A stretch of 42,520 nt of DNA, from positions 1 to 42,520 of the IMG/VR virus record IMGVR_UViG_3300005589_000052; one strand, written 5' to 3'. The position numbers and the translations under genes were made by a program. This DNA is from a virus (Duplodnaviria > Caudoviricetes). Positions 4,030 to 34,454 of the stretch are shown here, in pieces. A model generated the notes under the pieces. It did not search any database. It had not been told where the DNA came from and saw nothing but the letters and a program-made list of their open reading frames with translations. The first letter of the stretch is position 1. Every line of letters starts with the position of its first letter.

Positions 4030-5697
4030 CTATCTCCGTCTAAATCGGGGTGTTTCCGCAAGCCCTGCGGCTTCGAGTGCGATCCGGTTCTCTTCGGCGG
4101 GGTCGCCTCGAATGAACAGCGGGTGCAACTCGCGGGGGTCTCGGGGTGGTTGTGGTGCGCGGTGCGTGTTGGACCAGTTGTAGTCCGAGAAGTAGCGCAG
4201 CTCGTCCATGAAGTGGTTGTCGCGGTCGATGGGCAGCTCCTTGTTTTTGCCCGTCTCGACACGCTGGGGGAAGATGTAGCCGTCGAACTCGTTGAGCGGG
4301 TTGGAGGGCACGCGAGCGTCGATCAGCTCTTGATCGGGATCGTTCTCCAGGGCGTTGGCAAAGAAGCGGATGCGCGGCTCCCCGTGGTTGGAGTCCTTGA
4401 GCGCCCAGCGAACCGTCTCGATGCCCGCAAGGATGGATCCCGGCCCCTTCTTCGCCACCATCGCAATCGGATGGCCCAGGTGGTTGAGCTTGTGGCCGAG
4501 CATGTCGTTGAGCTTGGCGACCTTCTCCGGGGGGTGGTCGCAGACAATCGCCCGCACGTCATACTCGTGCTGCCAGTCCACAATGCGCTTGGCCCACTCA
4601 TCGAGGCCGATGTTGGTCTGGTAGTAGCACTTGACGCGGAAGGCGTGCCCGTCGTCGTCCACGGCGTACAGGCCAACGCTCGCGGGGTCCGGCGAAAATC
4701 CCCAGTCCACCGCGATGACAAAGTACGCGACAAGCCGGGCGCTGAAATCCTCGGGCAGACCCGCACTCGATCCAGCCCAAATCTTGCCCGTGACAGGCTC
4801 CAAGCGCCACCGCCCGTAGTCCTCTTTGCGCTTGACGAGTCGCCCGTTGACAACATGGCGCTCGTGCTTGAAACCCGCATAGACTTGCCCGCTTTCGCTA
4901 ACCCACAAGCCGTCGCGCAGGCGCTTCTGGTTGACCGGGCTCATGCGGTCGAGCGTCATGCCGTACATGGCACCTTCGGCAGTCCAGCGCTTCAAACGGG
5001 CATCCCAATACTTCGGGTTGTCCTTGAGCGTGGTCTTGATCCGGTGCATGTTCATCCAGCCCTCGATCTCTTCGGGCGAGTAGTTCAGGATGCTAATCAG
5101 CTCGGGATCGGGCGTGTATGGCTCGTTGGCGCGGACGTTCAGCCAATGCCCAGCGTGCGCCGGGTTCACGTCGGCCACCTGTAGCGACCAAGGACGGCCA
5201 AAGCGGTGGATGTAGAAGCGGCGAAGACGGGAGCCGATCAAGTCCCAAGCGTGCTGGAAACCCTCCGTCGCCTCGATGAAGAACCCCCAATCGTACTGGG
5301 TGGACATGATGCGCTCGGGGCTGTCCATGCCCACAAGGTCCACTTGTGACGATCCCTTGTAGGGACGGCCATCGACAACCGTTTCAGCGTACGGGAAGAT
5401 GTACTCGTCCCGGTGGTTGCGCTTGCGGGGCGGTGTTAGCGCCGGGTGCCCGTGTCCAAGCACCTCGTTTTCAAAGATGTCGATGAATGACGAGTTCAGC
5501 GACTTGCGGGTTTGGCGGATGATGAGCCCGAGCGTCCCGGGATACATCTCGCAAAGCAGGCGGACGTAGAGCGCGAGGCCGAACGTCTTGCCAGTGCCCG
5601 CTGGGCCTTCCCACAAGACTTCCTGCTGCTGCGTCTGGATGAGTCGCCGCAGGTTCTCCGAGATGACGATGGGCGGTTGCTCAATCGTCGCTACCAA
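4030..5697 (-). CDS. terL: terminase large subunit
   Basis: Walker A EGPAGTGKT, Walker B region YDWGFFIEATE, DVNP coupling motif, DNP, nuclease motifs AVDWG / CD / DNHFMDELRY. Confidence 0.92.
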   Translation of the reverse strand: MVATIEQPPIVISENLRRLIQTQQQEVLWEGPAGTGKTFGLALYVRLLCEMYPGTLGLIIRQTRKSLNSSFIDIFENEVLGHGHPALTPPRKRNHRDEYIFPYAETVVDGRPYKGSSQVDLVGMDSPERIMSTQYDWGFFIEATEGFQHAWDLIGSRLRRFYIHRFGRPWSLQVADVNPAHAGHWLNVRANEPYTPDPELISILNYSPEEIEGWMNMHRIKTTLKDNPKYWDARLKRWTAEGAMYGMTLDRMSPVNQKRLRDGLWVSESGQVYAGFKHERHVVNGRLVKRKEDYGRWRLEPVTGKIWAGSSAGLPEDFSARLVAYFVIAVDWGFSPDPASVGLYAVDDDGHAFRVKCYYQTNIGLDEWAKRIVDWQHEYDVRAIVCDHPPEKVAKLNDMLGHKLNHLGHPIAMVAKKGPGSILAGIETVRWALKDSNHGEPRIRFFANALENDPDQELIDARVPSNPLNEFDGYIFPQRVETGKNKELPIDRDNHFMDELRYFSDYNWSNTHRAPQPPRDPRELHPLFIRGDPAEENRIALEAAGLAETPRFRRR

Positions 5698-6477: not shown

Positions 6478-7842
6478 TCAGCCTGCCGTGCTTCGGCCTG
6501 GGGGGACGAGTGCCTGCCGCCCCGATTGCCGATAAGGCGCGGGGCAGGTGATCGTTTTGGGGGCCGTGCGCCAGATGTCGAGCAGCGCTTCCGTGTCCGC
6601 TGAGTCCGGTGTTTCGCCCGTGTAGGCCGCCATTTGTTCCGTGAACAGGCCCAGGAACTCGCCGTTGTCGCCCACCGTCGGCTCTATGCAATGGCCTTCC
6701 GGGTAGCCGTTCCAGGTCACGATCACCAGCCCGTCTAGCCGCTCGCCCGCATCGTCGATAGCCTGATAGCCGTCAAACTGCCCCTTGATCGTCTCCGTTG
6801 AGCGCGGGATGGCCCTCGTCGCGTTGCCAGCCCCCCACTCAAGAACGTAGTCCTCGAAGCCCGGAGAGAAGTTGCCAAGCCCCACGCGCCCCGAGTTCGC
6901 GGCGACTGCAGGCTCGATGTATGCCGTGTAAGCGTCTTGAGCCCAGTTGCTCGCCTTCTCGCGGATCGTGTCACCGTCCGCATTTAGATAGTCCTGATAG
7001 CGAATCCACGGGAACAGGCCGTCAAGCCAGCTCACGTCATTCGCCCCGTGGTTGCGCCCTACGACAAAGAAGTCGTGGTCTGCCGCCGTGCGCGCCGCCT
7101 CCATCACCCCGCTCCACTCGGCGGTAGAAATCGCCTCCACACCCACGCCAGGGATATTCAGCGTGCCCTCGTACCAGTAGATCACCACGCGCCCATCAAC
7201 CTTGAAGGCCGCTGGGTTGTCCTTGAGCTTGATGACAAGCTGCGAAATGTCGATGGCGACCTGCCCAAGCCGCGAGAGCTTCGACGTGTAGTCGTCCGAA
7301 AAGTAGTTCCAGATGTAATACGCCTCGTAGTTCGCCGTGACGCAGTTGGTGAGGCCCGCCTCGTTCGCCCGTTCCAGCATCTTGTCGAGGTGGCGATACC
7401 GCGTGTCAAGGCCCCGCGTGTATTCCGGGTCGCCCTCCCCGTACCCGTAGTGAGACGTGCCCGCAAGGATCCCCAGCGTGCAGCAGATCGTGTTGATCCT
7501 GCCGCGAGGGTCGCCGTCGCGCGGGATCACGCCAAGCATTCGGTCGATGTGCGCAATGCTCGCGGCATCCTTGCCCGTGTCGCTATAGATGCCCGTGAGG
7601 GGCCGCAGCTTGGAGGCGACCATGCGGTGACCGCCGTTGCAGGCGCTCGCGTCCTGGATCGCGTACGGGATGGGTGTGTACACCTCGGGATTCGAAGCGC
7701 TCCAGGTGGCACCGTCGAGATCCCAGTTGCCATAGTCCTCGTCCGCACCCCCGTCGTCGGTCGGGATCGCATACCAGCCCTGCACAATGAGGGAAACGTG
7801 GTCCGCAGGCCAGTTGTCGGCAAGATCGAAGACGTGAGCCAT
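6478..7842 (-). CDS. GH99/GH71-like glycoside hydrolase domain protein, first gene of the late operon
   Basis: Motifs QGWY, PLTGIYS, FKVDGRVVIYWY, SPGFED and IVTWNGYPEGHCIEP match GH99/GH71 TIM barrels; start re-called at ATG 7842. Confidence 0.7.
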   Translation of the reverse strand: MAHVFDLADNWPADHVSLIVQGWYAIPTDDGGADEDYGNWDLDGATWSASNPEVYTPIPYAIQDASACNGGHRMVASKLRPLTGIYSDTGKDAASIAHIDRMLGVIPRDGDPRGRINTICCTLGILAGTSHYGYGEGDPEYTRGLDTRYRHLDKMLERANEAGLTNCVTANYEAYYIWNYFSDDYTSKLSRLGQVAIDISQLVIKLKDNPAAFKVDGRVVIYWYEGTLNIPGVGVEAISTAEWSGVMEAARTAADHDFFVVGRNHGANDVSWLDGLFPWIRYQDYLNADGDTIREKASNWAQDAYTAYIEPAVAANSGRVGLGNFSPGFEDYVLEWGAGNATRAIPRSTETIKGQFDGYQAIDDAGERLDGLVIVTWNGYPEGHCIEPTVGDNGEFLGLFTEQMAAYTGETPDSADTEALLDIWRTAPKTITCPAPYRQSGRQALVPPGRSTAG

Positions 7843-8051
7843 TGCCCGCCTTATATCGGAGTCGGGGGGTGGCCTCGGGCGGAAAGTGTAGTATTTCGCT
7901 ACACTTTCGGGTGGCCAGAATGGAACAGACTGGAACAAAGTGCGGGTTTTCTCAAGTTTCCCCTTGCGCGCTGTTCGGGTTTGTCCGAAGGTGTACCTGT
8001 GCCGAGCGCGTGCTTGGCGCACCCCAACAACGACTTTCCAGGACTAGAACC
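7843..8051. promoter_or_regulatory. divergent late/early control region
   Basis: Non-coding gap between divergent arms; perfect 10-bp inverted repeat 7882-7908, TGGAACA repeats at 7921 and 7931, hairpin 8000-8019. Confidence 0.65.
7882..7908. repeat. palindrome GAAAGTGTAG-N7-CTACACTTTC, with a second copy at 2096-2118
   Basis: 7884-7906 and 2096-2118 are 21/23 identical. Confidence 0.85.
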
Positions 8052-9070: not shown

Positions 9071-9756
9071 GCCCCACACCACACGGAGAGGCGGCGCGAG
9101 CGCTTAGCGGATCAGGCCCAATGCCAGCGGACGTTTTCAGTCGGCATCTGCACACCCTGCTTGCCGAGCATGGGCAGATGGTGGAGCTGCTGTATGACTG
9201 CGCGTGCTGCATGTCGCCCATCTTCCTGCGCACGAAGGTGAAGGCACTCCTCGCCAAGCTCGACGGGGAAGGCGGAGAGGCGGACCCCGAGAAGGCGGAC
9301 CAGGCTGCCATCTGTCCCGAATGCGGCAATGGCGCTCGGATCGCCCCCTGCCCCACCTGCTGCCCGAAGGCGGAGATGGCGCCCATCACCTTTCAAGGGA
9401 TCTTGCCGCCATACTACGTTGCCACACGGACAATCGTGGCTGGCGAGGTTGCGAAGGTGGGGGTGGAGCTTGCGGAGTCCGGACGCGTCCCGGTGCCCGA
9501 CCCCGAGCCGGAACAAAAGATGTGGATTCACGGCACGTTTGACCCGCCGCTTCGATTTGACCAGAACGACAAGCTGCCCGCTGCCCCCAAGGTGGAAGTG
9601 GGCGACCGCAAAGCCCGGCGTGATCGGTTCATGTGTGCGCTGCTCGCTTCGGGGGACTACCGGGATGCCGATGAGGATGAACTGGCCTCGTGGGCCGAGA
9701 AGGCAATCGACGCATCCGACGCGCTTGACGCTGGGGGTGTGCGCCATGACAGCTAG
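9067..9756 (+). CDS. mosaic hypothetical protein with a Cys-rich module
   Basis: ATGA coupling; CPECG...CPTCC module. Confidence 0.65.
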   Translation: MSPTPHGEAARALSGSGPMPADVFSRHLHTLLAEHGQMVELLYDCACCMSPIFLRTKVKALLAKLDGEGGEADPEKADQAAICPECGNGARIAPCPTCCPKAEMAPITFQGILPPYYVATRTIVAGEVAKVGVELAESGRVPVPDPEPEQKMWIHGTFDPPLRFDQNDKLPAAPKVEVGDRKARRDRFMCALLASGDYRDADEDELASWAEKAIDASDALDAGGVRHDS

Positions 9757-10024
9757 AGAGCCCGTGGAGGGGTGGCGGTGGGACGCCGATCGGACCCAAT
9801 GGACCCTTCGCGTGAAAGGCGGTGCGGTCGCATCGGCAAGCGTCGCGGTTGAGCTCCGCAGCGGGCTCTGGGTCGTCGAGCTGCGCGCGCCTTCCATGTA
9901 CGTCGCTCAAACCCATGATGAGTTTGACAGCCTCAAAGCCGCCAAACTCGCCGCCGAAGACTACGCCCGCACCCAACTACAAGCCGCGCTTGACGCGCTG
10001 GAGAACCCCGATGCAACGTCCTGA
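9746..10024 (+). CDS. hypothetical protein, paralog of 18656-18886
   Basis: Start re-called; shares (F/Y)D(S/T)LxxAxLAAEDxAR with 18656-18886. Confidence 0.7.
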   Translation: MTAREPVEGWRWDADRTQWTLRVKGGAVASASVAVELRSGLWVVELRAPSMYVAQTHDEFDSLKAAKLAAEDYARTQLQAALDALENPDATS

Positions 10025-10217
10025 ATACCGAGAGTGTGCCACGGCTCGATGGATGTCGAGCGCCATCGTCGCGCTGAACGAAGTCCAATCGCGAATCGAC
10101 CGGCCTGCCTACGTCCCGGACATTCACCTGCAATGGCTCCTGCCCGACATCCAGACGGTAGAAGCCAAGATCGCGGACATCCGCAAGCGCATGGAGGCCC
10201 GCTATGAAAAGCCATAA
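10011..10217 (+). CDS. hypothetical protein
   Basis: ATG 10011 after GGAGA; overlaps both neighbours. Confidence 0.6.
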   Translation: MQRPEYRECATARWMSSAIVALNEVQSRIDRPAYVPDIHLQWLLPDIQTVEAKIADIRKRMEARYEKP

Positions 10218-10920
10218 CCCCCTACAGTCCCGCTTTGACGCGCTGCTTGAGGCGAGCCGCTGGGTCTTGCACGCGATTAGCGGTGTGAGCCGTGGCGGTG
10301 GTCCAACCCAATCGGGTGAGACGGAAGCCGCACTTGACTCGCTCAAGGCCGCTATCGCAGCCGCAGAGGGCGGGCGAGAGGAGCCCGAATCCCAGCCCGA
10401 CTACTCCAAGGGAGTGCCGCGAAGTGTGGTGCTGGAACGGCAGAAGAAGGCCGAGCCCGGACAGGACTGGGCGGAACTCCGCCCGCTTTCCGGAGGTGGG
10501 TTCGTGCTGGTGGACTCCAACAAAGCCAAAGAGCCCATCGTCTGGTTCGTCTCATGTACACACTGCGACGAGATGTACTACACGAGCCTCATGGGGGAGC
10601 GCTGCAAGCAGGACGACTGCCCCGGCGTGTTCGTCCCGATCATCGACGACCCGGAGCCCAAGTTCTACACGCTCTCGAACGGATCCAAGATCGAAATCGG
10701 AGACGTGGACGAGGCTGATCGCATCATGTCAACGCAGTACGACGCTTGCTGGTTTGCGGACGACCCCTCGATGCGCGTGCGCTCATTCCTGCACTGGTTT
10801 GCAAAACGGCATAAAGGCGCGGATGTGATTGCGTCGATCCATGACCCTGTGAACGAGGACCTGGCAGAACTGCGCGTGTCCGACATTCTCGCCCTGCTTG
10901 AACCGGACACCGAGGCTTGA
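10204..10920 (+). CDS. mosaic protein with a Zn-finger module and a terminase-like fragment
   Basis: CTHC..CKQDDC module; NGSKIEIG...RIMSTQYD segment. Confidence 0.7.
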   Translation: MKSHNPLQSRFDALLEASRWVLHAISGVSRGGGPTQSGETEAALDSLKAAIAAAEGGREEPESQPDYSKGVPRSVVLERQKKAEPGQDWAELRPLSGGGFVLVDSNKAKEPIVWFVSCTHCDEMYYTSLMGERCKQDDCPGVFVPIIDDPEPKFYTLSNGSKIEIGDVDEADRIMSTQYDACWFADDPSMRVRSFLHWFAKRHKGADVIASIHDPVNEDLAELRVSDILALLEPDTEA

Positions 10921-11278: not shown

Positions 11279-11562
11279 GCCTCAACGAATACCGCCTGTG
11301 CGAGATGCGCGGCGACGACCCCGGCCTGCTCGAACCGAAGTGCGACTTCTGCTGCGATGCCGACGAAGTCTGCACGATCTGCACCTTCGCGCGGAGCCAA
11401 TGCCGATGCCAGTTCACCGACCACCGCGTTCAGAAGTGGTTCGCAGCGCTCGACGACCTCGACGATCCGAAGTTCTACAGCGCGAAGCAGTGGAGTGAGT
11501 ACCTGCTCGACGAGTTCGAGGACCGCTATGGCAGGTGCGGGTACTGCGGAGGTGCCGAATGA
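11275..11562 (+). CDS. Cys-rich putative zinc-binding protein
   Basis: CDFC, CTIC, CRC and CGYC motifs; GGAGG SD. Confidence 0.65.
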   Translation: MSLNEYRLCEMRGDDPGLLEPKCDFCCDADEVCTICTFARSQCRCQFTDHRVQKWFAALDDLDDPKFYSAKQWSEYLLDEFEDRYGRCGYCGGAE

Positions 11563-11873: not shown

Positions 11874-11957
11874 GCGCGGAATGGGTTGGGGGGCCCCGAG
11901 TGGCCATTCCGCGTGCATGGAGACTCAAAGACCACTCGGGGCTTTCCCCAACCTTTT
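11874..11957 (+). promoter_or_regulatory. structured leader / putative attenuator upstream of recE
   Basis: Two long competing stems, the longer followed by TTTT. Confidence 0.55.
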
Positions 11958-11971
11958 ACCAGGAGTCAAAT

Positions 11972-12820
11972 ATGAACCCAACATTCACGGGCATCGTGGA
12001 AGATATGCCCATCGAGGAGTACCACGCGCACCCGCACTTGTCGGCGAGCGGCATCAAAGACCTGCTCACCACGCCAGCGCATTACAAGAAGTACGTGCGC
12101 GACGAGAAGCGCAAGCCAACGGCTGACATGCAGTTCAGTAGCGCGGTGGACATCTTCCTCACCGAGCCGCACAACGCAGACCGCCTTGTCCCACTCGCAC
12201 CTGACTGCGCGAAGCGAAGCAAGGTCGAAAAGGCACTGTGGGCCGAACACAAGCGCAAACTTGTCCCGGGTGCCGTGTCTCTAACACGCGAGGAACGCGC
12301 GGAGGCCCAGCGCTTGGCTGATATCGTTCGCAACGACCCCCTCGTCCAAAACCTTGGCATCCTCAACGGGGCGGCGCAAACGTCCTACTTTGCGAGCATC
12401 GACACGCCAGAAGGCCCGTGCTACGTCCGCTGCCGTCCCGACTTCTACGACGGCGGCAACATCATCTGGGACTTGAAGGCGCTGCGCGATGCTTCCGACC
12501 ACATGGTCAACAAGGCAATCACCGACTACGGCTATCACCGTGCCGCAGCGTGCTACCCGGCTGTGGTGCAGGCGTGTGGCCTTCCCGCTGACCTGTACGT
12601 CCTGGTGATCGTCGAGAAGGAAGGGATCAATGCCGTCCGCGTCATGCCCATCGAGGACCGAGACGTGGAGCAGGGGCGGCGCGAGTTCATGCAAGCCGCA
12701 ACGCTTTGGGCCAAATGCACGCGCACGGGCGAGTGGCCCGGCTATCACAAGGGGTTCAGCTTTGGCGGGCTCCTCAACTACAAACGAGACGACGAAAACC
12801 GCAACTTTATCAAGGAGTAA
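11972..12820 (+). CDS. recE: RecE/exonuclease VIII-like PD-(D/E)XK nuclease (DUF3799-like)
   Basis: EEYHA..LSASGIK, RCRPD, IWDLK, YGYHRAAACY, C..TGEWPGY. Confidence 0.85.
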   Translation: MNPTFTGIVEDMPIEEYHAHPHLSASGIKDLLTTPAHYKKYVRDEKRKPTADMQFSSAVDIFLTEPHNADRLVPLAPDCAKRSKVEKALWAEHKRKLVPGAVSLTREERAEAQRLADIVRNDPLVQNLGILNGAAQTSYFASIDTPEGPCYVRCRPDFYDGGNIIWDLKALRDASDHMVNKAITDYGYHRAAACYPAVVQACGLPADLYVLVIVEKEGINAVRVMPIEDRDVEQGRREFMQAATLWAKCTRTGEWPGYHKGFSFGGLLNYKRDDENRNFIKE

Positions 12821-12828
12821 TCGACACC

Positions 12829-13590
12829 ATGAATAACGAATCCATCGAGGTCTACGAGGCCCGCAAACAAGACCGCTTTACGCTTGCCCGAAAACTCGCC
12901 GAGTCCGAACTCTGCCCTAAGCAGTTTCGAGGAAAGCCCGCAGACATCATGATCGTCATGCGCCAAGCGGAAACGCTCGGGTGCGATCCGCAATCGGCAC
13001 TCGCCAACATGTTTGTGGTCCACGGAACGGCGGGATACTCGTCCAAGTTCTTGATCGCGCTCGCCAACCGTCACGGCGTTTTCGACGGGCCGATCCGCTA
13101 CAAGACCGAGGGTCGCGGCAAGGATGCCGTGGTTACGGCGTGGGCGAAGCTCAAGGACGGGACCGTCGTCGAGGGCATCAGCGTTGACTGGAACATGGCG
13201 AAGGCTTCCGGGTGGACCAAGAACCCGAAGTACAACGAGATGCCCGAACTGATGTACCGCTACCGCTCCGCCGCGTTCCTGATCCGCACGACATGCCCCG
13301 AGACGGCGATGGGGATGCTGTCCCTCGAAGAGATCGAGGACATGCACTATGCCGATGCCCGCGAAGTCCGCCCCGAGCCATCCACCATTGCCCGCCTAGA
13401 GGCCGCGATGAACAAGGACAAGAAGCCCGAAGTCAAGCCCGACATGGACGAGGCCGAGGTTGCCGAGCCCGAAGCCCCAGACGTGGCCATCATGCGCGGA
13501 GAGGATCCAGAAGGGGACGGCTACGAGGGAGCGCCCTGGGAACGTGACGAGCTGTTTGACACCAAGGCGAAAGCGGAGGACCCGGCGTGA
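12829..13590 (+). CDS. recT: RecT-like single-strand annealing protein
   Basis: LAESELCPKQFRGKPAD, MAKASGW.KNPKY..MPELM.RYR.AAF..R..CPE; adjacent to recE. Confidence 0.8.
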   Translation: MNNESIEVYEARKQDRFTLARKLAESELCPKQFRGKPADIMIVMRQAETLGCDPQSALANMFVVHGTAGYSSKFLIALANRHGVFDGPIRYKTEGRGKDAVVTAWAKLKDGTVVEGISVDWNMAKASGWTKNPKYNEMPELMYRYRSAAFLIRTTCPETAMGMLSLEEIEDMHYADAREVRPEPSTIARLEAAMNKDKKPEVKPDMDEAEVAEPEAPDVAIMRGEDPEGDGYEGAPWERDELFDTKAKAEDPA

Positions 13591-17655: not shown

Positions 17656-17903
17656 TGGGCCACCTCAACGACCTAGCCAACGCCGAGATCGCCGAACTCA
17701 AGGCCAAGGTGGAAGCGCTGGAAGCGGGCTGGCGAGACACGCTCGAAATCTTTCACATGGACGGCACGCCGGACGGCATTCACGACTGGTGCATGTTTTG
17801 TGATGCGCCGTGGGGCCACGGCCACAATGGTGGATGTGATGTGGGAGAGTCTGAGAATCGCTTCACCGCCCTAGCTGAGCGCGGCAAGCAGGAGGGGGAG
17901 TGA
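17655..17903 (+). CDS. hypothetical protein
   Basis: TGATG coupling; CMFC..H..C. Confidence 0.65.
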   Translation: MGHLNDLANAEIAELKAKVEALEAGWRDTLEIFHMDGTPDGIHDWCMFCDAPWGHGHNGGCDVGESENRFTALAERGKQEGE

Positions 17904-18277
17904 TGGACGATCACAAACTTTTGGAGCGCGTCGCGCAACTGACAGCACATCGAGCATGTTGCGGCACTGAGCACGATCCAGCGAACGGTAAACTGCACGG
18001 GTACTGCGTCGTTTGCGGTGTTCCGTGGCCGTGCGAATACGCGGGAAGCCCACCGCTTGCCGGGTCCGAGTCCCGCAAAGCCGCCGCCTTCGACGAGTTG
18101 TTTGAGGCGGCGCGAGTGGCCCTGCACGACATGGACCACCTGCTGTCGCCGACGCTGGGGCCTAGAGACGTGCGCGAAGAGGGTGCGCTTGAGGCCGTTC
18201 GAGTGGGACTGTCCGCCGCCATCGAGTCCGCCGAGAAGGCCGTGGAGGCTCCCCGTGGGCCGAAGGAGGGAGCGTGA
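17900..18277 (+). CDS. hypothetical mosaic protein
   Basis: CCGTEH...CVVC..PWPC module; GTGA coupling. Confidence 0.65.
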   Translation: MMDDHKLLERVAQLTAHRACCGTEHDPANGKLHGYCVVCGVPWPCEYAGSPPLAGSESRKAAAFDELFEAARVALHDMDHLLSPTLGPRDVREEGALEAVRVGLSAAIESAEKAVEAPRGPKEGA

Positions 18278-18663
18278 TGCGGCGCAAGGACTTGGGCAAA
18301 TGCCAATACTGCGAGAAAGGGCTTTCGATCGTGAGCGGCGAGGTCATTTACGGACCGGGTCGCTACGCGGATCTTCGGTTCTATGCGTGCCTGCCCTGCA
18401 AAGCCTGGGTGGGAACGCACAAGGGGACATTGATCCCATTGGGCACAGTGGCCAACGCCGCTTTGCGGCGCGCGCGAAGTGGCGCGCACGTTGCTTTCGA
18501 CCAACTCTGGCGCGAGGGCCGTACCACGCGAAGTGGAGCTTACCGATGGATGCGAAGGGCGCTCGGGCTCAAGAAGTACGAGGCGCACATAGCTCTCTTC
18601 AACGAGGCGCAGTGCCGGGCACTGATCCAAGAGGTCGAAGCCCTGGAGGCTCCCCGTGGGTAG
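18274..18663 (+). CDS. DUF3268-like zinc-finger protein
   Basis: CQYC...C..C.AWVGTHKGT..PLGT.ANA.LRRAR..AH..FD.LW...HIA.F...QC. Confidence 0.8.
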   Translation: MMRRKDLGKCQYCEKGLSIVSGEVIYGPGRYADLRFYACLPCKAWVGTHKGTLIPLGTVANAALRRARSGAHVAFDQLWREGRTTRSGAYRWMRRALGLKKYEAHIALFNEAQCRALIQEVEALEAPRG

Positions 18664-18886
18664 CCGGGAGCCGAGCGAGCGGTGGGAGCGGGGCGCTCCA
18701 AGCTGGTGGCGGCTTGATCTTCCGTTAGGGGGTCAATTCGTCGTGTGGCTAACCGGGAGCGGCAGATTCGCATTCGATGGGCGCGCATACGACACCCTCG
18801 TCGAAGCCCAACTTGCCGCCGAGGACCACGCAAGACACCACATACATGAGGCGCTGCGAGCGCTGGGAGATACGAGCCATGAGTGA
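18656..18886 (+). CDS. hypothetical protein, paralog of 9746-10024
   Basis: GTG start inside the 17-bp junction repeat; LAAEDHAR motif. Confidence 0.65.
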   Translation: MGSREPSERWERGAPSWWRLDLPLGGQFVVWLTGSGRFAFDGRAYDTLVEAQLAAEDHARHHIHEALRALGDTSHE

Positions 18887-26676: not shown

Positions 26677-26994
26677 CTAGGGGCGCTCCTCCAGGCGGTC
26701 AAGGCGCTTCAGGATTGCCTGGATGTGGGTCATTACCGTCTCGTTTGGCGGGCGGCCTGCGAGGTCGTCGATGCGCTTGTCCATGCTGCGAAGGTCGTCG
26801 CGCAAGTCGCTCACGTCTTCGGTCACCCCGTCGATTCCCATCTGGAGGGGCTTGAGCTGCATCGAGGACATCCACCCGACGAGAGGGACGACGAGCAGGA
26901 GCAGGCCGACTTGAACGCCGGGGAGGATTGAGTCCGTCGTGAACCGGCGCGGCTCTGGCTCGGGCCCTTCGTCTGCTTGTGTTTTATGTGTCAT
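26677..26994 (-). CDS. TM plus coiled-coil protein (lysis-cluster-like)
   Basis: One TM segment followed by heptad repeats; ATGA coupling to the polyvalent gene. Confidence 0.65.
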   Translation of the reverse strand: MTHKTQADEGPEPEPRRFTTDSILPGVQVGLLLLVVPLVGWMSSMQLKPLQMGIDGVTEDVSDLRDDLRSMDKRIDDLAGRPPNETVMTHIQAILKRLDRLEERP

Positions 26995-29900
26995 TGGTCG
27001 GACTTGGCTTCCTGGAACGTGCGGTTGAAGGCGCGGATCTCAGCATACAACTCGACTTCAAGCCGCGCACGCTCATCGTCGTCAGTCGTCGCGGCGATTT
27101 CTTTTTGCATCTGCTTGCGAATCTTCTCCAAGAGCTTGACTTCGCCAGCAAGGTCGATTACCGGGCCGACCTCCGCGTAGAGTTCTGCGGCCTTCAGGTC
27201 GTGCCCGGGCTCCTCAGAGGCGAGGTAGTTTTCGTAGAGATCGGCCTGCACCAGCACATCTTGGCTGTTCGCGTAGTAGTCGTAGTAGCCCTTTCGCGCG
27301 CTCTCCTCTCGGAACAGGTGCCGGACGAACGGGGCGCGCGCGGCGGCGGCGGACATGTCGCCCTTGGTTGCGAGGGAGCCCGCGTCGAGCGCGTTGTTGA
27401 ACACCCGCGCGGTACCCCCCAGGCCGACCCCGAAGATGTAGCGCAAGGTTTCAGGGTGTATGTCAACGCCGCCTGACGAGAACTTGTCGCCCCCAGTCGC
27501 GGAGTTCATCAGGCGCGCAGCGTCCTTCCAAACATCAGCCGTGTAGTCGCGGCCCGATTCGGAGCGCGGGCCAGGCGTGCGGTCGAAGTCCGAGGCTCCC
27601 GAATAGATCTTGGAGCCCTTCCAGTCCTGGTTGACGGCCAGCTCGACAAGCGGGTCTGTGATCGTCGGCGAGAGTAGCCGGAGGGCCGACTGGTAAGAAA
27701 CATCGTGGGCATCGCCTACCGGGGAAAAGCTCGACATCGCCGACGATGCCATGTTGGCGAACCCTTCGAGCGCGCCCGTCTCGCCGCGCCCCGCCGACGT
27801 TCGGGCCATCGCCGACATCGTGCGCCCTGCCGTGGCAAAGAACGAGTAGCCGTAAGGCATCGGGACGGAGAGGTACCCGCTTTCTCCCATGCCCGTATAG
27901 ATCTGCAAGTACCGATCCTTTTCGTGCTCGGGATTCGCGTCCCACCGACTGCGCCCGTCGTCGTCGTCGCCGGAGAGCCAGTAGTTGAGCTGGTCGAGCA
28001 TCGCGGCAAAGAGCATGATCGAGGCGGCGATCTTGCGCCCGCGCTTTGTCGTGACGGTGGATGCCATCATGCGAGCGGTGCCCTGGATGCCCGCGTTTGC
28101 GAACATGTACATACCCGAAAGCCAGCGCTGTTCACCCCGCGTGTTGAAGTCGATGGTGAGCGTCTTCGCAAGCTCGGCAGCCTGGGTGTCGCTCATGCCA
28201 AGCTCCTCAACGGCGTACCGGAACGCGGACAAGCGCACGCCGTTCTCAACGGCCTCGTTCAACTCGGTGATGAACTCCAGCACCTTGGCGGCGTAGTCAA
28301 TCCCCTTCCGCAGACCTTCGGGGCTGTCCATCGCCTTTCGGATGGCCTTCTCCATGTCCGCCTGGATCTCTTCGACCCCGCGCGCGTGGAAGTATCCCGT
28401 CTTCCCGCCAGCCGCGCGCAACCGATCCCACCACGGGGTCCACTCGCTGTCCTTCCCGCGCTGCGAACGGTAGATGCCGCGCACGGCAGACGGGGCCCGC
28501 TTCGAGATGTCCTTTGCGGCCTTCCAGCCCTGGCCTTCACCAAGCACAAGCCCGGCAGTCTGCAAGTCCTTCACGAAGTTGGTGAAGACGAACTCAAGGT
28601 TCAAGCTCGTGTTGATCGCGGACTGATACCGAACGTAGGCGCGCATCGCCTTCATGATCGCGCCCGACTCCTCGACGTTGCCGCCCTTGAATGCGCGGGA
28701 TAGGGCCTGGGCCTTGTCGTTGAAGACGATGACCTTGGCCTTTCGCCCCTTGCCCTCGCCATCGTAGAACTGAATCGCGTCCTCGCGCCAATCCTCGCGC
28801 ATCTCCCAATGCTCGCGCATGATGCCATCTTGGTCCATCTTGACCTTGACGGGCACATCGTAGATGTTCCAGAAGTTCTTGTCGGGGAAGGCTTCGATCA
28901 GCTTGCGCAGCGTGTCCACCACGCGCTTCTTCTCCGCCTTGAAGATCGCGTCCTCAACGGCTCGCACCGTGTTCAGGACCACGTTGTCCGGCGCAGACTT
29001 CCGCCCGCCACGCCGCTTGATCCCTGGACCCGTGGACTGGAAGCCCTTGGCCATCCCCATCTTGGGCTTGCCGCGCCGCTTCATCTCGTGGACGAGTGGG
29101 ACGTAATGCTTGAAGCCCGTCTTGGCGATGGCTTCTTCAAGGGCCGGGCTCATCTCGCCCGACTCCCGCAGGATCTTGATGCGCTTGCGGGACTGACGGC
29201 GTAGGAACGCATCTAAGCGCTTGTAGCGATCCGCCAACGGACCAGACTCAAGATCGCGCACGAGTTTGGTAGCGACGCTTGAGCGCACGCTAGAGGCCGG
29301 GTTTGACTCGGGATGCCAAAGGATCGCCTCTTGACCGCCACCCTTCTTCTTGCGCATCCAGTCCGCGTCGGGTGCCGCAGGCTTGCGACCGGGCTTTGAT
29401 GGACGTTCACGGCGAACCGCGATACCATCGGCCACGTCTTTGTTGTACGCATCCCACTTGCGCTTGGCTTCCTTCCACGCCTCAAGCGCGTCGTGCGCCT
29501 TTTGCGCCTCGACTCCCTGCTTGTAGATGTAGGCGTTCGCCTCGGGCGCGTGCTTCGCTAGGGCATAGTCGTGGGCTTCCTCCAGGGTGATGTCTTTGCC
29601 CAGGATGCTCGAAAGCTCCTTCTCAACCTTCTCGCGGTTTGCGTTTAGCGCCTCGTCGAGCTTGCCGTAGTAAAGCCGCTGGGCTCGGCTCACGTTCATC
29701 TCGTCCGGCATCTCCGCGCCCGCCTCTTCCTCAAGGGCTTTTTGGAGTTGGCGCACGGGCAAGAAGAAATCCTGGAACGCACGGCGAGCCTGATCGAAGC
29801 GGCTTAGGCGATCAAACTGAATCGAGCGCATCGAGTCCTCGCCCTCTTGCGCAACGTCCGCTAGGTCACCCTCTTGGGGTGCCGTGGCCCTACGGATGTC

Positions 29901-32900
29901 TGGGTCTGAGGGGGAGAACGTGCCCTGGTTTCCCGTGGCGGATTTGATCTGGGTCGGAGAGAAGGCGACGTAAACCGTGCCGATTCGGTCTTCCACTGGA
30001 TCGTCATGCACATTCTCGAACACCTGCCCGTCACGGCCTGCGGACTGCGCCGCTTTCAGCTCTGAATGCAAGCGGCCTTCGTCCCACATCTCCCCTTTGA
30101 AGTTGAAGGATCTCGGGTCTTGGATCGAAAGGTATACGGGAAGAATGTTTGAACCGAGAGGTGTCTTCCGCTTCGGCTCTTCTTCTAGCTCGATGCGCTC
30201 ATACTCCTCGACGGCGGCAGCATTTGCATCCCAATCGCTCGCCTTGCCCGTCTGGCGCGCCTTCGCCTCCGTCTCTTCGACAGCCCGTTGCGCTTCGCGC
30301 GCATCTCGGCTCCCAAAGGCTTCCGCATATTCTCCAGCAACATCAGCCCGATCAATGAAGAAGAATCCTTCCTTTGCGCTTTCCGCCTTGGTGATCGCTC
30401 CGCGCATCGACTTAGAGAAAGCATAGAACTCTCCCGTCGTCCCGTGGTAAACCACCAACGGCCTGCCCTGCTCGTCCACGACCTTGCTCTCGCCAAACCA
30501 CCTGTAGAACGCCCTCAGCGCTTCGTCCGTTCCTGCAATGGGCCTGCCTTCCGAGTTCAGGCGCGGGCGCTCCGTGCCGTCTACTTCGATGGTCGGGGAG
30601 GTGGCGAAGCGGATGTCGTCTCCACTGCGCTTGCTCTTGCGGGCAGCCTTTTCGAGCGCGTTCGCTCTCGCCTCCGTTCCACTATAGGCGGTTACGGGAA
30701 CACCTGCTCGCTCAAGTATGGCAATAGAAGCTGCGTCGCCTTTTGGGACGAGGGCTGCCTTGAACTCTGAAATAGCAACGGCCCTTTGCGGCTTTGCCTC
30801 AAAGTATTCAGACGGTGCGGCAAGAATGGCTTCACCAAGGCGAACGCCCGCCTCGACACCGCGCTCGATATCGCCTGCAAAATCGTTTCGCCGAAGTGCT
30901 CGGCGAAGTTTCGCCGGAACAACTTTCCCGCGAGACACTGAACTAGCCAGCGCCTTCATCGACCCATCTAGCGCGTCAAACGTGCTGTCCCACTTATATG
31001 CAGGGAGGACCGCTTCGTGGTACGCATCCATCAGCGGCTTCTGAACCGTCTCTTCGTACTCACTAAATGAATTGGTCAGGCGCGAAGCTGCGGCGCGAAT
31101 ATCCTGAATGGATCCAAACTCACGTGCCACCGCTGCTCGGACTTTGCCGGGCCCGTACGTCGCGGACTCCTCCTTGGCTTTTCCAGAGTTCGCAAGCATT
31201 GCGTCAACTACGGCGCTGAGGCTATAGGGCACCTTGCGCCGCCCCATCTCGATGTATGGATCGCGCCATATGCGGTCGAGAAGCGACATGTACCAGTTTC
31301 GGTACGCTTCCTCGCCCGTTTTTCGCTCGGCTGCCTTTACGCGGCGCGTCCAGTCAGGCGTCCGCCCCTCACGCAGGGCACCAGCCGCCCGCTCATAGCC
31401 ACCAAGGCTCCCAAAGTATATCAGCCCATCTTCATTGAACGTGTCCGGCCAATCCGACCGACTTGACATGTCGGACGGGTAGATACGGGCAACGGCAGCG
31501 GCTACTTCATCGCTCAAGCGCAGATGCGCTTGGCTTTCAAAATCAATCTGGCCGCGCACTTCGCGTTCCAAATATTTTAGAAGGTCAGCGTCTTCGCCAG
31601 CCAAGACCCCCCCTATCGGCGGAGACTTCATAAACGGGCGAACGGGTTTCCCAATGGACTCGGCGAAAGCGAGCCTCCACCGAGAATTGCGCCGCGTAAA
31701 GACGGATTCCGCCTCGTCCCGACCCTTGTTCCAGCCGACATTTTCTGCGCGAAGGTTATCGAACGCACCCCAAGTCGTCATGCCTGCCGCTTCCAAGTGC
31801 GGCTTCAACTCATCTACGACGGCTTGCGCAGCTTTGTCATCGCGGCGAAACTTCATGCGAGGGTGGCGCACGGTCCAAGCGTCTGACTCAGCGACCGGAA
31901 CGCCCCGTTCTGGGTCCACCATGTCCCGATCAGCAATCAGTGTAATCCGGCCAAAGCCATCGACCGGACCATGAGACACCTTGCGAATGGCGAGACTCGG
32001 CAACGCTATGCCCCCGATCTCCTCCGCATGTGCGAGATTTTCAGCGGAAAGGTTGTGGAGCGCCACAAGGCTGTCGTCTCCGGGAACGACCGCCCAACGG
32101 TCAATCCCCCGCTCGTAGTCCTCGATGGCGGCTTCTGCTGCGGTGGGGCCCGCATCGCGGCGGTAGGTGCGTTCCGGGCCGCGCTCGGAAGCTGGGCGGG
32201 GAACTTCCCCACGTTCCGCACGCAGCCTCTTCGCATCACGATTGCGCTTTTGCTTGAGCCGTTTGCGCTGGGCAGGGGTTAGCTTCTCGTCGATCTCGGG
32301 CGCAACCGCTTTTGCTTTGGGCTTGACTTCCTTGGCCTTGGCCGCGTCTTCGGCGGCTTTCTTTTTGGCCTCGGCTTGCTTTTCCTTCGGGGTCTTCGGC
32401 AGGGGCTCGGCAGCGGCTTCGGCCTCTTGGTCCATCTGCGCGGCCTCGTCGGCCATCGCTTGGTCTTCCTCGGTCGGCAGCGCTTCAAACGTCAGCGTGG
32501 ATTCCCACCATTGCGGCGTGCCCTTCTGCGGTGCGGCGGGCAGCGTCTCGATCTTCGCCTCGCGCATGATGCGGGCCAGCTCTTTCGCCATCGCCACGAC
32601 TTCATCGGGCTTAGCGCCTGCCTTGGTCGTGCGGCCTGCTTGTTCCTTGAGGATCGAGTCCAGGTTCGCAAGGGCTTGCGTGCGCTTCGCCGGGCTGATC
32701 CGTCCACGGGTGAGCTTCGAGACGGCATCCTTGAGCCAAGCCGCGATGCGCTGCAACACGCCCTTGAACTCGGCCACGTCGCTGGGCTTGATGGATTCCG
32801 GGTTCTGGACAAGCGAGTCCACGAGGCGGGACATGTTCTGCGCGCCCCACGCAAAGCCTTCCTCGACAAGCAGGGCTGTGCGCTCGGGGCCATCGGGGAG

Positions 32901-34454
32901 CGCCGCGAAAGGCTTGCGACCGTTCGACGCGGTGAACTCCTGTTCGTAGATCGCCGCCATCCGCAGCGTCAGCGCCGGGAAAGACTGCTTCGCCTCCTCG
33001 ACCAAGCGGCCAAACTCTTCCGAGCCCGCGCGCGCCTTCGAGTGCAGGATCTCGTGCAGCGCGACACCCGCAAGCATCTCATCCTGGAACTGCTTGTTGA
33101 CGATGACCACGCCGTCCACATAAGCACCCGGTGCCGCGTTCGCATCGTCAATCGTCACGATGGGCGGCAACTCTCCACCGCTTCCCACGATGTTGCTCAG
33201 CTTGGCGTGCAGGTCCAGCTCGCCCGTGGGGATGCTGTCCTGATCTGTGGCCATCTGGTCCGGGTCCACGACTTCAAAGGCAAGCTCGCCCTCGATGCCG
33301 GAACTCTTGGCGAATCGCGATACGGCCTCCTCCGGGCTCGCCTGAACGCGCTGCTCTCCGGTCGAGTCCTTGGCCGGGTCGAGCCCCTTCGACACCTCAG
33401 CGGCGCTGTCAAGCACCGTGCGGCCAACGTCCGCCTCGATGGAGTTCGCGATGGACTTCATCCGGGCGCGCTCGCCGACCTGCTCGAACGTCATGCCCAT
33501 CTGGGCGAGACCCGAGCCGACGATGCCGCCGATCATTGCGTTTCGCCCAACCTCGGACGCGATTGCCTCCCACTCTTCGGGCTCGGCGTACTGGAGGATC
33601 TGCTGCGCGATCATCTTCTCAGAGAAGGTTTGCGCGCCTTCCTGTGCGGCTTCCTGAAGCCCCTCAGCCGCAACGGTGGGGAATGCCTGCGCCACCTTCT
33701 TGAGTGCGCCCCCGCTCCGCTTGTCGATGTTCGCGAGCGCCTGCCCGATCTTGCCGAGCTGGCCCGTGCCGCCGATGGCCAAGCCTTCCGAAGCGCCGAC
33801 CGCAGACCCGAGCGCGAACGCCGCCCATTGGGTTGCCGTGTCCGCACCGTTTGCCTCAGCGTCACGGAACTGGGATTGCGCCTGAACAAGCGCGCCGATC
33901 CGAGCCGCGTGCTGGGCGACCGTCGTGCCGAGCCCGATGTCCACGGCCTTCGCCGCGCGCCCCGCCTGACCGAGCGCCTTGCCCGCTGTTCCGAACGTCC
34001 TCGATCCCGCGCCCATGATGAGCCCGCCGCCGATCATCGCCGCCGCAGACCCCGCGCCGCTCGCGAGCTCGGAGCCAAAGCCCGGCTGGACAAGGCGCTG
34101 ACCGTCAGAGGCGAGCATCGCATCCTCGTTGACCGCAGGCAGGTCGCGAATCCCTTGCGCAGCGCGGCGCAGCGTGTCGCTGCCCGTGGCCATTCCGGCA
34201 ACCTCGACCGGGGCCGCGACGACCTCCATCGCGCCCTCAGAGAATGAGCGCGTGGCGTTGTAGACGTTGGCTAGCGCCCGCTGCGCCCCCGTCATGCTGT
34301 CGCGCTCGACCTCAGCCGGGATCGGCTTGGACTCGAAGCCCGCGCCTTTCAGCCGTTCACGCAGCGCAGCCGCAGCGCCCTCGGGCACCTTCGGCTTGTC
34401 CTCTTTGGCAAGCGCCGCGAACTTGGAGCGGATGTCGCTCAAGACCCGCCCCAT
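26991..34454 (-). CDS. large polyvalent ejection protein: zincin metallopeptidase, two ART-like domains, LPD38-like C-terminus
   Basis: 2487 aa; HEILH...EE; LVALHNL...PSLAI; WFGESKVVDEQGRPLVVYHGT...SPTQIKSATGNQGTF; AKTLTIDFNTRG...LSVPMPYGY. Confidence 0.8.
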   Translation of the reverse strand: MGRVLSDIRSKFAALAKEDKPKVPEGAAAALRERLKGAGFESKPIPAEVERDSMTGAQRALANVYNATRSFSEGAMEVVAAPVEVAGMATGSDTLRRAAQGIRDLPAVNEDAMLASDGQRLVQPGFGSELASGAGSAAAMIGGGLIMGAGSRTFGTAGKALGQAGRAAKAVDIGLGTTVAQHAARIGALVQAQSQFRDAEANGADTATQWAAFALGSAVGASEGLAIGGTGQLGKIGQALANIDKRSGGALKKVAQAFPTVAAEGLQEAAQEGAQTFSEKMIAQQILQYAEPEEWEAIASEVGRNAMIGGIVGSGLAQMGMTFEQVGERARMKSIANSIEADVGRTVLDSAAEVSKGLDPAKDSTGEQRVQASPEEAVSRFAKSSGIEGELAFEVVDPDQMATDQDSIPTGELDLHAKLSNIVGSGGELPPIVTIDDANAAPGAYVDGVVIVNKQFQDEMLAGVALHEILHSKARAGSEEFGRLVEEAKQSFPALTLRMAAIYEQEFTASNGRKPFAALPDGPERTALLVEEGFAWGAQNMSRLVDSLVQNPESIKPSDVAEFKGVLQRIAAWLKDAVSKLTRGRISPAKRTQALANLDSILKEQAGRTTKAGAKPDEVVAMAKELARIMREAKIETLPAAPQKGTPQWWESTLTFEALPTEEDQAMADEAAQMDQEAEAAAEPLPKTPKEKQAEAKKKAAEDAAKAKEVKPKAKAVAPEIDEKLTPAQRKRLKQKRNRDAKRLRAERGEVPRPASERGPERTYRRDAGPTAAEAAIEDYERGIDRWAVVPGDDSLVALHNLSAENLAHAEEIGGIALPSLAIRKVSHGPVDGFGRITLIADRDMVDPERGVPVAESDAWTVRHPRMKFRRDDKAAQAVVDELKPHLEAAGMTTWGAFDNLRAENVGWNKGRDEAESVFTRRNSRWRLAFAESIGKPVRPFMKSPPIGGVLAGEDADLLKYLEREVRGQIDFESQAHLRLSDEVAAAVARIYPSDMSSRSDWPDTFNEDGLIYFGSLGGYERAAGALREGRTPDWTRRVKAAERKTGEEAYRNWYMSLLDRIWRDPYIEMGRRKVPYSLSAVVDAMLANSGKAKEESATYGPGKVRAAVAREFGSIQDIRAAASRLTNSFSEYEETVQKPLMDAYHEAVLPAYKWDSTFDALDGSMKALASSVSRGKVVPAKLRRALRRNDFAGDIERGVEAGVRLGEAILAAPSEYFEAKPQRAVAISEFKAALVPKGDAASIAILERAGVPVTAYSGTEARANALEKAARKSKRSGDDIRFATSPTIEVDGTERPRLNSEGRPIAGTDEALRAFYRWFGESKVVDEQGRPLVVYHGTTGEFYAFSKSMRGAITKAESAKEGFFFIDRADVAGEYAEAFGSRDAREAQRAVEETEAKARQTGKASDWDANAAAVEEYERIELEEEPKRKTPLGSNILPVYLSIQDPRSFNFKGEMWDEGRLHSELKAAQSAGRDGQVFENVHDDPVEDRIGTVYVAFSPTQIKSATGNQGTFSPSDPDIRRATAPQEGDLADVAQEGEDSMRSIQFDRLSRFDQARRAFQDFFLPVRQLQKALEEEAGAEMPDEMNVSRAQRLYYGKLDEALNANREKVEKELSSILGKDITLEEAHDYALAKHAPEANAYIYKQGVEAQKAHDALEAWKEAKRKWDAYNKDVADGIAVRRERPSKPGRKPAAPDADWMRKKKGGGQEAILWHPESNPASSVRSSVATKLVRDLESGPLADRYKRLDAFLRRQSRKRIKILRESGEMSPALEEAIAKTGFKHYVPLVHEMKRRGKPKMGMAKGFQSTGPGIKRRGGRKSAPDNVVLNTVRAVEDAIFKAEKKRVVDTLRKLIEAFPDKNFWNIYDVPVKVKMDQDGIMREHWEMREDWREDAIQFYDGEGKGRKAKVIVFNDKAQALSRAFKGGNVEESGAIMKAMRAYVRYQSAINTSLNLEFVFTNFVKDLQTAGLVLGEGQGWKAAKDISKRAPSAVRGIYRSQRGKDSEWTPWWDRLRAAGGKTGYFHARGVEEIQADMEKAIRKAMDSPEGLRKGIDYAAKVLEFITELNEAVENGVRLSAFRYAVEELGMSDTQAAELAKTLTIDFNTRGEQRWLSGMYMFANAGIQGTARMMASTVTTKRGRKIAASIMLFAAMLDQLNYWLSGDDDDGRSRWDANPEHEKDRYLQIYTGMGESGYLSVPMPYGYSFFATAGRTMSAMARTSAGRGETGALEGFANMASSAMSSFSPVGDAHDVSYQSALRLLSPTITDPLVELAVNQDWKGSKIYSGASDFDRTPGPRSESGRDYTADVWKDAARLMNSATGGDKFSSGGVDIHPETLRYIFGVGLGGTARVFNNALDAGSLATKGDMSAAAARAPFVRHLFREESARKGYYDYYANSQDVLVQADLYENYLASEEPGHDLKAAELYAEVGPVIDLAGEVKLLEKIRKQMQKEIAATTDDDERARLEVELYAEIRAFNRTFQEAKSDQ

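Follow-up and report, generated by a model that had tools for sequence, protein, structure and literature searches.

A repeat-flanked fragment of a large-terminase ATPase inside a cassette-shuffled accessory gene of an uncultured tailed phage

Phage accessory proteins derived from terminases are already known. PMC13601566 describes T4 vs.8, an accessory protein homologous to the ATPase of the large terminase subunit (TerL) and located outside the packaging module, which comprises an ATPase-like domain of 167–216 aa with both Walker motifs, A and B, and is toxic together with EcAvs2, that is, acts as an activator. Two small phage accessory proteins that are no terminases yet activate Avs2, Ksap1 and Ksap2 (PMC11564622, PMC13601566), are ATPase-like in fold only, with a 4–6-stranded sheet of their own, and trigger the sensor, whereas the gene reported here is known by its sequence homology; they would offer a functional model for this gene if it indeed imitates a terminase in front of such a sensor. 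Recombination by Rad52-like proteins (Red-beta, RecT, Erf) is a described source of phage mosaicism, in published assays (PMC3945230) that involve homologies much longer than 8 bp and swaps of homologous regions.

The gene described here resembles vs.8 in that an accessory gene located away from the packaging genes is homologous to the TerL ATPase but, as read from its sequence, carries an internal cassette of 35 residues that lacks Walker A and appears to come from a non-self donor; new here is a terminase-derived element that is much shorter, internal, probably non-self and repeat-flanked. The homology covers the NG hairpin, the Walker B strand and what lies between them in the TerL ATPase domain of the Terminase_3/PBSX-like family (PF04466, phrog_2; named relatives in Thermobifida phage P1312 and Streptomyces phages Dagobah and Mischief19). 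Compared with this domain, the fragment is missing Walker A, a significant coupling motif, the lid and the nuclease, has Asp in place of the catalytic Glu, and is embedded in an unrelated accessory protein encoded in an oppositely transcribed gene block. As in the mosaicism systems, the phage encodes a RecT, together with exonuclease VIII, but here a piece of an essential late gene lies inside an unrelated gene.

The stretch of DNA analysed in full, hereafter the window, is a 42.5-kb record of an uncultured tailed phage, estimated to be 97% complete and present in two marine-sediment runs that are possibly its source. The packaging and structural genes occupy the minus strand, and a plus-strand block at about 8.4–26 kb contains exonuclease VIII, RecT, replication and SSB genes along with many small unknown genes. 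Inside this block, transcribed oppositely to the TerL gene, lies the gene under study (P0001; 10204–10920, plus strand; 238-aa open reading frame), a patchwork accessory gene that matched no Pfam, PHROG, NCBIfam or PADLOC family. Direct reading of the sequence places a GGAGG motif resembling a ribosome-binding site at 10193–10197 (plus strand), 6 nt before the ATG; matches in a promoter scan were no better than those in shuffled sequence. The earlier note had called the gene early, a timing suggested by its position beside the exonuclease VIII, RecT and replication genes. The exonuclease VIII and RecT-like annealase genes (11900–13590, plus strand; phrog_412, E 4e-49, and phrog_561, E 1.5e-52) are candidate agents of the cassette shuffling discussed below. 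In both assemblies, which possibly represent the source samples, the region of the gene lies on a single contig at a depth of 21–26, with no variant letters or joints. Elsewhere in the window, a polyvalent protein of 2,487 aa (26991–34454, minus strand), whose domains are PBECR5 nuclease-like, ART-PolyVal ADP-ribosyltransferase and LPD38, is likely an injected host-manipulation protein, and a 514-aa gene resembling glycoside hydrolase family 71 (6478–8022, minus strand; Pfam E 4e-4, under the cut-off) lies upstream of the terminase genes, with 74% DNA identity over 1.3 kb to a copy in the relative G005, where it is located about 20 kb from TerL.

On the evidence of sequence homology, the gene contains a genuine TerL fragment. 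A 78-row profile matches residues 151–185 (10654–10758, plus strand) with E 1.6e-7 at profile positions 95–129 of 454, that is, 35 residues from the middle of the large-terminase ATPase. The complete comparison set consisted of 108 TerL proteins, or 107 without the phage's own, and the profile of these 107 matches the gene with E 8.3e-7 among the 910 frames of the window (runner-up 3.8). The short motif shared with the phage's own TerL, discussed below, does not carry the match: a profile of 74 TerLs containing neither STQYD nor RIMS still yields E 6.3e-6 among the same 910 frames, with the runner-up at 1.3, confirming the terminase fragment that the earlier note had reported. A database search with the segment alone had been expected to return terminases. 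In a tblastn search of the last 106 residues of the gene against annotated phages, six records were found at E 0.8–5, three of which are terminases aligned at the fragment, and the three phages concerned recur in the group of the six best relatives found for the phage's own TerL; the 40–44-residue segment matched no Pfam, PHROG, NCBIfam or PADLOC family (one NCBIfam TPR row, E 0.077, was under the cut-off), and no PDB sequence match was found for it. When the phage's own TerL is modelled with AlphaFold2 (pLDDT 92.9), the nearest structures are those of D6E (5OE8), the closest solved relative, and Sf6 gp2 (4IDH). In this model, the stretch matching the fragment covers the strand of the NG hairpin and the one after it, then a short helix and, by way of a loop, the strand of Walker B.

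The remainder of a terminase has no significant match in the gene. The profile match is confined to positions 95–129 of 454, and the fragment contains no Walker A P-loop; ATPases require Walker A to bind and hydrolyse ATP, so the fragment would do neither. At the catalytic glutamate of Walker B, where the 107 TerLs have Glu (94%) or Gln (6%), the fragment has Asp. Nothing in the gene matches TerL profiles outside positions 95–130, the C-terminal RNase H-like nuclease included, and the collinear continuation after Walker B, where the helix and the coupling motif (ADxNP) would be expected, scores like shuffled sequence; it belongs to a further 45 residues without significant likeness to TerL. 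An HW..R stretch further downstream is weakly TerL-like (p about 0.02–0.14, depending on profile and null), and 60 of 194 TerLs place their best local match on it, more than in any of 30 shuffles. The interpretation of the whole 80-residue insert as a mini-terminase thus finds no support other than this hint.

The fragment is bracketed by direct repeats. Copies of GACGACCC at 10645–10652 and 10759–10766 (both plus strand) lie 114 bp apart and in frame, as had been reported before; each encodes Asp-Asp-Pro (DDP). At the first copy, the DD is also present in the homologue P0002, and at the second, TerL has Glu-Ala-Thr, each codon being one base away from a common TerL codon. The profile match runs from the first whole codon after repeat 1 to the base before repeat 2, and when segments are placed arbitrarily in the early region, an 8-mer pair that is in frame and flanks both ends as closely occurs at 0.2–1.4% of positions (tolerance 6–15 nt). 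The boundaries of the profile are soft, and repeat 2 could also represent drifted Glu-Ala-Thr codons of the terminase. No allele was found in which the site is empty and a single repeat copy links the two flanks: the two known homologues lack the module together with its downstream flank, and neither assembly shows a joint. Further copies of GACGACCC are present at 11314 and 22472 and, on the opposite strand, at 9870 and 11650. The copy at 11314–11321, in the next-but-one gene, again encodes DDP, with EPK a few residues on, and may be another linker used in shuffling. Overall, we consider it highly probable that a TerL piece with clear-cut limits was indeed captured.

The phage's own large terminase (4030–5697, minus strand; 555 aa; phrog_2, E 2e-25) shares with the fragment the octamer RIMSTQYD, located at 10720–10743 (plus strand) in the gene and at 5313–5290 (minus strand) in TerL, an identity that the earlier note had pointed out and that we confirm. 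The codons agree at 21 of 24 bases, and the three differences are all at third positions; the observation that they are only synonymous is correct for the bases but circular, being automatic for an identical peptide, and is silent on selection. The octamer occurs exactly in 10 of the 108 TerLs, the phage's own included (6 of the long-hairpin and 4 of the short-hairpin type), and, over all six frames of the window, there are nine cases of an exact 8-residue repeat.

The donor was likely the TerL of another phage and not that of this phage, judging from the comparison of the sequences. The phage's own TerL carries a 12-residue hairpin insertion at the NG turn and ranks 58th of 108 by similarity to the fragment (local score 59, compared with 96 for the short-type P0036); for these reasons it is an improbable donor, and the origin from a related, non-self terminase that had been proposed is supported. 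Among the 108 TerLs, the NG turn is long in 27 and short in 81, and the NGS turn of the fragment fits the short-hairpin type. A close donor was not found among 22 TerL segments (best DNA identity 59/99), and the core of the fragment is identical at 25 of 27 nt to the long-type TerL of G005, the latter counting against a simple short-type donor. The hairpin insertion at the NG turn, found in 27 of the 108 TerLs including the phage's own (P0005–P0035), might itself alter the pore or recognition by sensors.

The gene has two detectable homologues, P0002 and a 326-aa gene of the syntenic relative G005, both without the fragment; no homologue with the fragment was found. The three genes share a PDYS.GVPRSVV segment and a four-cysteine cassette, after which they continue into three different tails. 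In the gene under study, the PDYSKGVPRSVV cassette, common to P0002 and the G005 gene, is located at 10396–10440 (plus strand; 84% identity to G005 over 45 nt), and the four-cysteine cassette, presumably zinc-finger-like and ending in GVFVPI, at 10555–10641 (plus strand; 89% over 44 nt at 10599–10641), with the homology to G005 stopping at 10641. From there, the G005 gene proceeds to a different cysteine-rich tail. P0002, which shares the N-terminal part as well as the four-cysteine cassette, reads FVPILDD and then almost directly PDTEA, the end that it has in common with our gene (10903–10917, plus strand), and so lacks about 80 residues, which include a second insert (10767–10902, plus strand) in which only the HW..R stretch is weakly TerL-like. 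The earlier delimitation of a 38-aa module is therefore upheld in that the homology fits the repeats and the homologues diverge here, but the stretch missing from P0002 is about 80 residues, not just 38. Since both homologues have the upstream cassette in common with the gene but part from it where the fragment starts, the gene is cassette-shuffled. More broadly, the early genes of this phage have short, near-identical blocks in common with the relative and switch partners at them.

Several neighboring observations concern the same family of cassettes. The G005 homologue (1369–2349 of locus L099) contains several cysteine-rich cassettes, one of them DnaJ-zinc-finger-like (NCBIfam E 0.11), and no terminase piece. 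A second early gene of the phage, at 17900–18277, has an N-terminal helical cassette in common with 10204–10370 (E 0.0065), and a G005 gene carries the same cassette, a further sign of shuffling. The small genes at 9746–10024 and 18656–18886 and at 890–1372 of L099 have in common a terminal helix, AxLAAExxAxxQL/HIxxALxAL; both of the former match the G005 gene located directly upstream of the homologue of the gene under study.

For the role of the fragment, the reading we favor, at a probability of about 0.5, is that it is a tolerated, drifting passenger of a cassette-shuffled gene. Under this scenario, a 35-residue piece of a TerL ATPase would have come to lie in frame between the two 8-base repeats of an accessory gene, from a donor that was probably a TerL of the short-hairpin type and the same family, encountered during co-infection or in a prophage. 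Entry may have occurred through short-homology recombination mediated by the exonuclease VIII/RecT pair or through illegitimate joining at the DDP linker. As the 8-bp match is far below the minimal pairing length of 31–34 bp quoted in PMC3945230, this route of recombination is conjectural. After capture, the piece would have drifted as a tolerated passenger that binds no ATP and probably lacks a selected role, in a gene family that would serve as a mixing pot of short cassettes, with the terminase piece as raw material that kept the frame open. The exact fit of the homology between the repeats, the probable non-self donor and the three different tails after shared cassettes all favor the passenger reading.

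Divergence from the terminases points in the same direction. The fragment scores 36.3 bits on the segment profile, lower than all but 1 of the 108 TerLs, and its best identity to any TerL is 52%, compared with a median of 79% between nearest neighbors among the TerLs. Five of its residues occur in none of the 108 TerLs, where 65 of the 108 have no such private residues in the segment and one has five. A Gly conserved at 99% and the Walker B Glu conserved at 94% have both become Asp; a single base separates four of the five private residues from a TerL codon, and four of the private changes add acidic residues. Selection could be analysed in a single carrier of the fragment. The TerL consensus is kept in 13 of 19 well-conserved columns and in 1 of 14 variable columns, and in 3–9% of matched draws (p 0.03–0.09) such a skew arises by uniform drift when a random TerL is the starting point; this borderline hint of constraint counts against a pure passenger, but the test is weak, being confounded by the way in which the segment was discovered, through its conserved columns, and by a donor outside the sample. 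Also weighing against the passenger reading, the reading frame has stayed open throughout this divergence, and the DRIMSTQYD loop, which by motif alignment is touched by EcAvs2, is intact.

Searches of protein, IMG/VR, metagenome and genome collections revealed no second carrier of the fragment, as would be expected of a passenger. In phmmer with the last 106 residues against 1.84 billion representatives, the only hits were the protein itself and two repeat proteins, which we rejected because their scores are sums of many 2–8-bit stretches; a 44-residue word search returned, among 2 candidates, only the protein itself. Blastn of the module against phage genomes gave five records at E 4, a chance level, and tblastn against plasmids gave none. 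In IMG/VR, the pattern RIM.TQYD occurs in 14 stretches, 6 in TerL frames (one from a near-identical phage) and 8 unrelated, and none of the 18 stretches with the pattern NG.KIEIG matches the module profile. A metagenome scan yielded only an identical copy of the gene, and all five matches of a genome scan were unrelated chance hits, with no host identified. The fragment was not found outside TerL in any of 36 related records or among 20,388 frames in 1.04 Mb of loci. Second profile matches were present in four of the 36 records: two are parts of the records' own TerLs (G001, G005), and the other two, in frames of 599 and 684 codons (G002:C1:14054-14155, E 1e-4, and G023:C1:35906-36082, E 0.0014), cover the Walker A region and probably belong to other P-loop ATPases. 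The clade is barely sampled, with two partial homologues of the gene, and so the absence of a second carrier is weak evidence. None of 18 core proteins tested was represented by another fragment among 181 early frames, giving no sign of a decoy array; a row for gene 6032 (E 0.0015, 47-codon frame) was set aside as chance.

The earlier note had proposed that the gene titrates terminase-sensing defenses or disturbs a competitor's packaging motor, and such a decoy or motor-poison role might exist. The former version is a tentative possibility of limited weight: produced ahead of TerL, the fusion protein would present a helix–loop–Walker B surface that either partly occupies the C-terminal sensor of Avs2 or Avs3, or threads its strands into Upx, in both cases leaving activation incomplete. 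According to PMC13601566, EcAvs2 forms a salt bridge with Arg154 of the PhiV-1 terminase, which, as counted in the supplementary sequence of that source, is two residues ahead of the Asp that opens the Walker B strand. By motif, Arg154 aligns with the Gln of STQYD, a surface kept in the DRIMSTQYD loop of the fragment, and this position falls in the sole block of the fragment that private residues have left untouched (chance 0.18); the aligned residue is, however, Gln and not Arg. The skew toward conserved columns (p 0.03–0.09) is in accord with a look-alike, and changes that remove catalysis would be irrelevant to a mimic. For Upx, the model is one in which unfolded ATPase beta-strands are bound by beta-augmentation (PMC13601566), and a short, strand-rich piece could imitate these, but the recognition is described as sequence-independent, which would not explain the exact octamer.

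Other published features of these sensors speak against mimicry by so small a piece. EcAvs2 buries 2,834 square angstroms of folded ATPase, with bridging ATP and redundant contacts (PMC13601566); Trp179 is part of the next helix, for which no significant match exists in the fragment, and the ATP site is also absent from the fragment. Avs sensors are further described as enveloping the core folds of monomers (PMC13581612), and the non-terminase binders listed in PMC13601566 (Ksap1, Ksap2 and T4 vs.8) have 4–6-stranded folds and activate Avs2. That EcAvs2 reads the whole folded ATPase, and that non-terminase binders activate it, argues against a 35-residue Avs decoy, as does the single carrier. 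Literature searches by title and start of abstract, with subscription papers mostly outside their coverage, found no published description of a terminase-fragment decoy or of fragment capture by microhomology. The more general proposition, which we consider unlikely, is that phages graft short linear epitopes of the TerL ATPase, from the hairpin to the Walker B strand, on shuffled early proteins that pre-occupy Avs2, Avs3 or Upx without firing them, the present gene being one such inhibitor caught in a snapshot, with a foreign terminase as its source and crossover at an 8-bp repeat as the route.

Reuse of the hairpin–strand–helix piece for folding with neighboring cassettes, with a function unrelated to its likeness to terminases, is distinctly unlikely. 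The retained hydrophobic and turn positions, the four acidic private changes and the column skew would be compatible with such reuse, but no confident fold emerged: a single-sequence AlphaFold2 model of the gene product was uninformative (pLDDT 35.6), the Atlas model had pTM 0.27, and structure searches gave no match above the bar. Moreover, the homologues manage without the fragment.

Interference with packaging, in which the fragment would act at the inter-subunit face, either by binding a competing phage's TerL as ring or monomer or by masking the phage's own TerL, is highly unlikely. The captured span includes the loop between alpha2 and beta3, where the trans-arginine finger R139 of P74-26 resides, and probably the L2 tunnel loop of D6E (PMC5727402; mapped by position relative to Walker B), and the probable non-self donor also speaks for this reading. 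In D6E, however, the trans finger R158 comes after Walker B and thus outside the fragment (PMC5727402, PMC5389665), the conserved GG(M/L)D loop is altered in the fragment, and the phage's own TerL, having the same octamer, would be at risk.

That no foreign piece was captured at all, the likeness being due to chance, to an assembly chimera or to an old copy of the phage's own TerL minus its hairpin insertion, is very improbable: the 25 of 27 nt shared with the long-hairpin TerL of G005, the nine exact 8-residue repeats and the lack of any library profile match to the fragment would agree with it, but a profile free of the shared motif finds the fragment all the same, both assemblies, possibly of the source samples, are contiguous and without variants there, the NGS turn fits the short type, and four short-type TerLs also carry RIMSTQYD.

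The locus thus appears to offer a clean snapshot of how part of another phage's essential late gene enters an accessory gene, and the junctions can still be seen. If the fragment is a passenger, it exemplifies the raw material from which new phage genes may be made and cautions against calling every fragment of a core gene a decoy. If, instead, it binds a sensor without triggering it, bacterial immune receptors that read folds would be jammable by a short copy of their own trigger.
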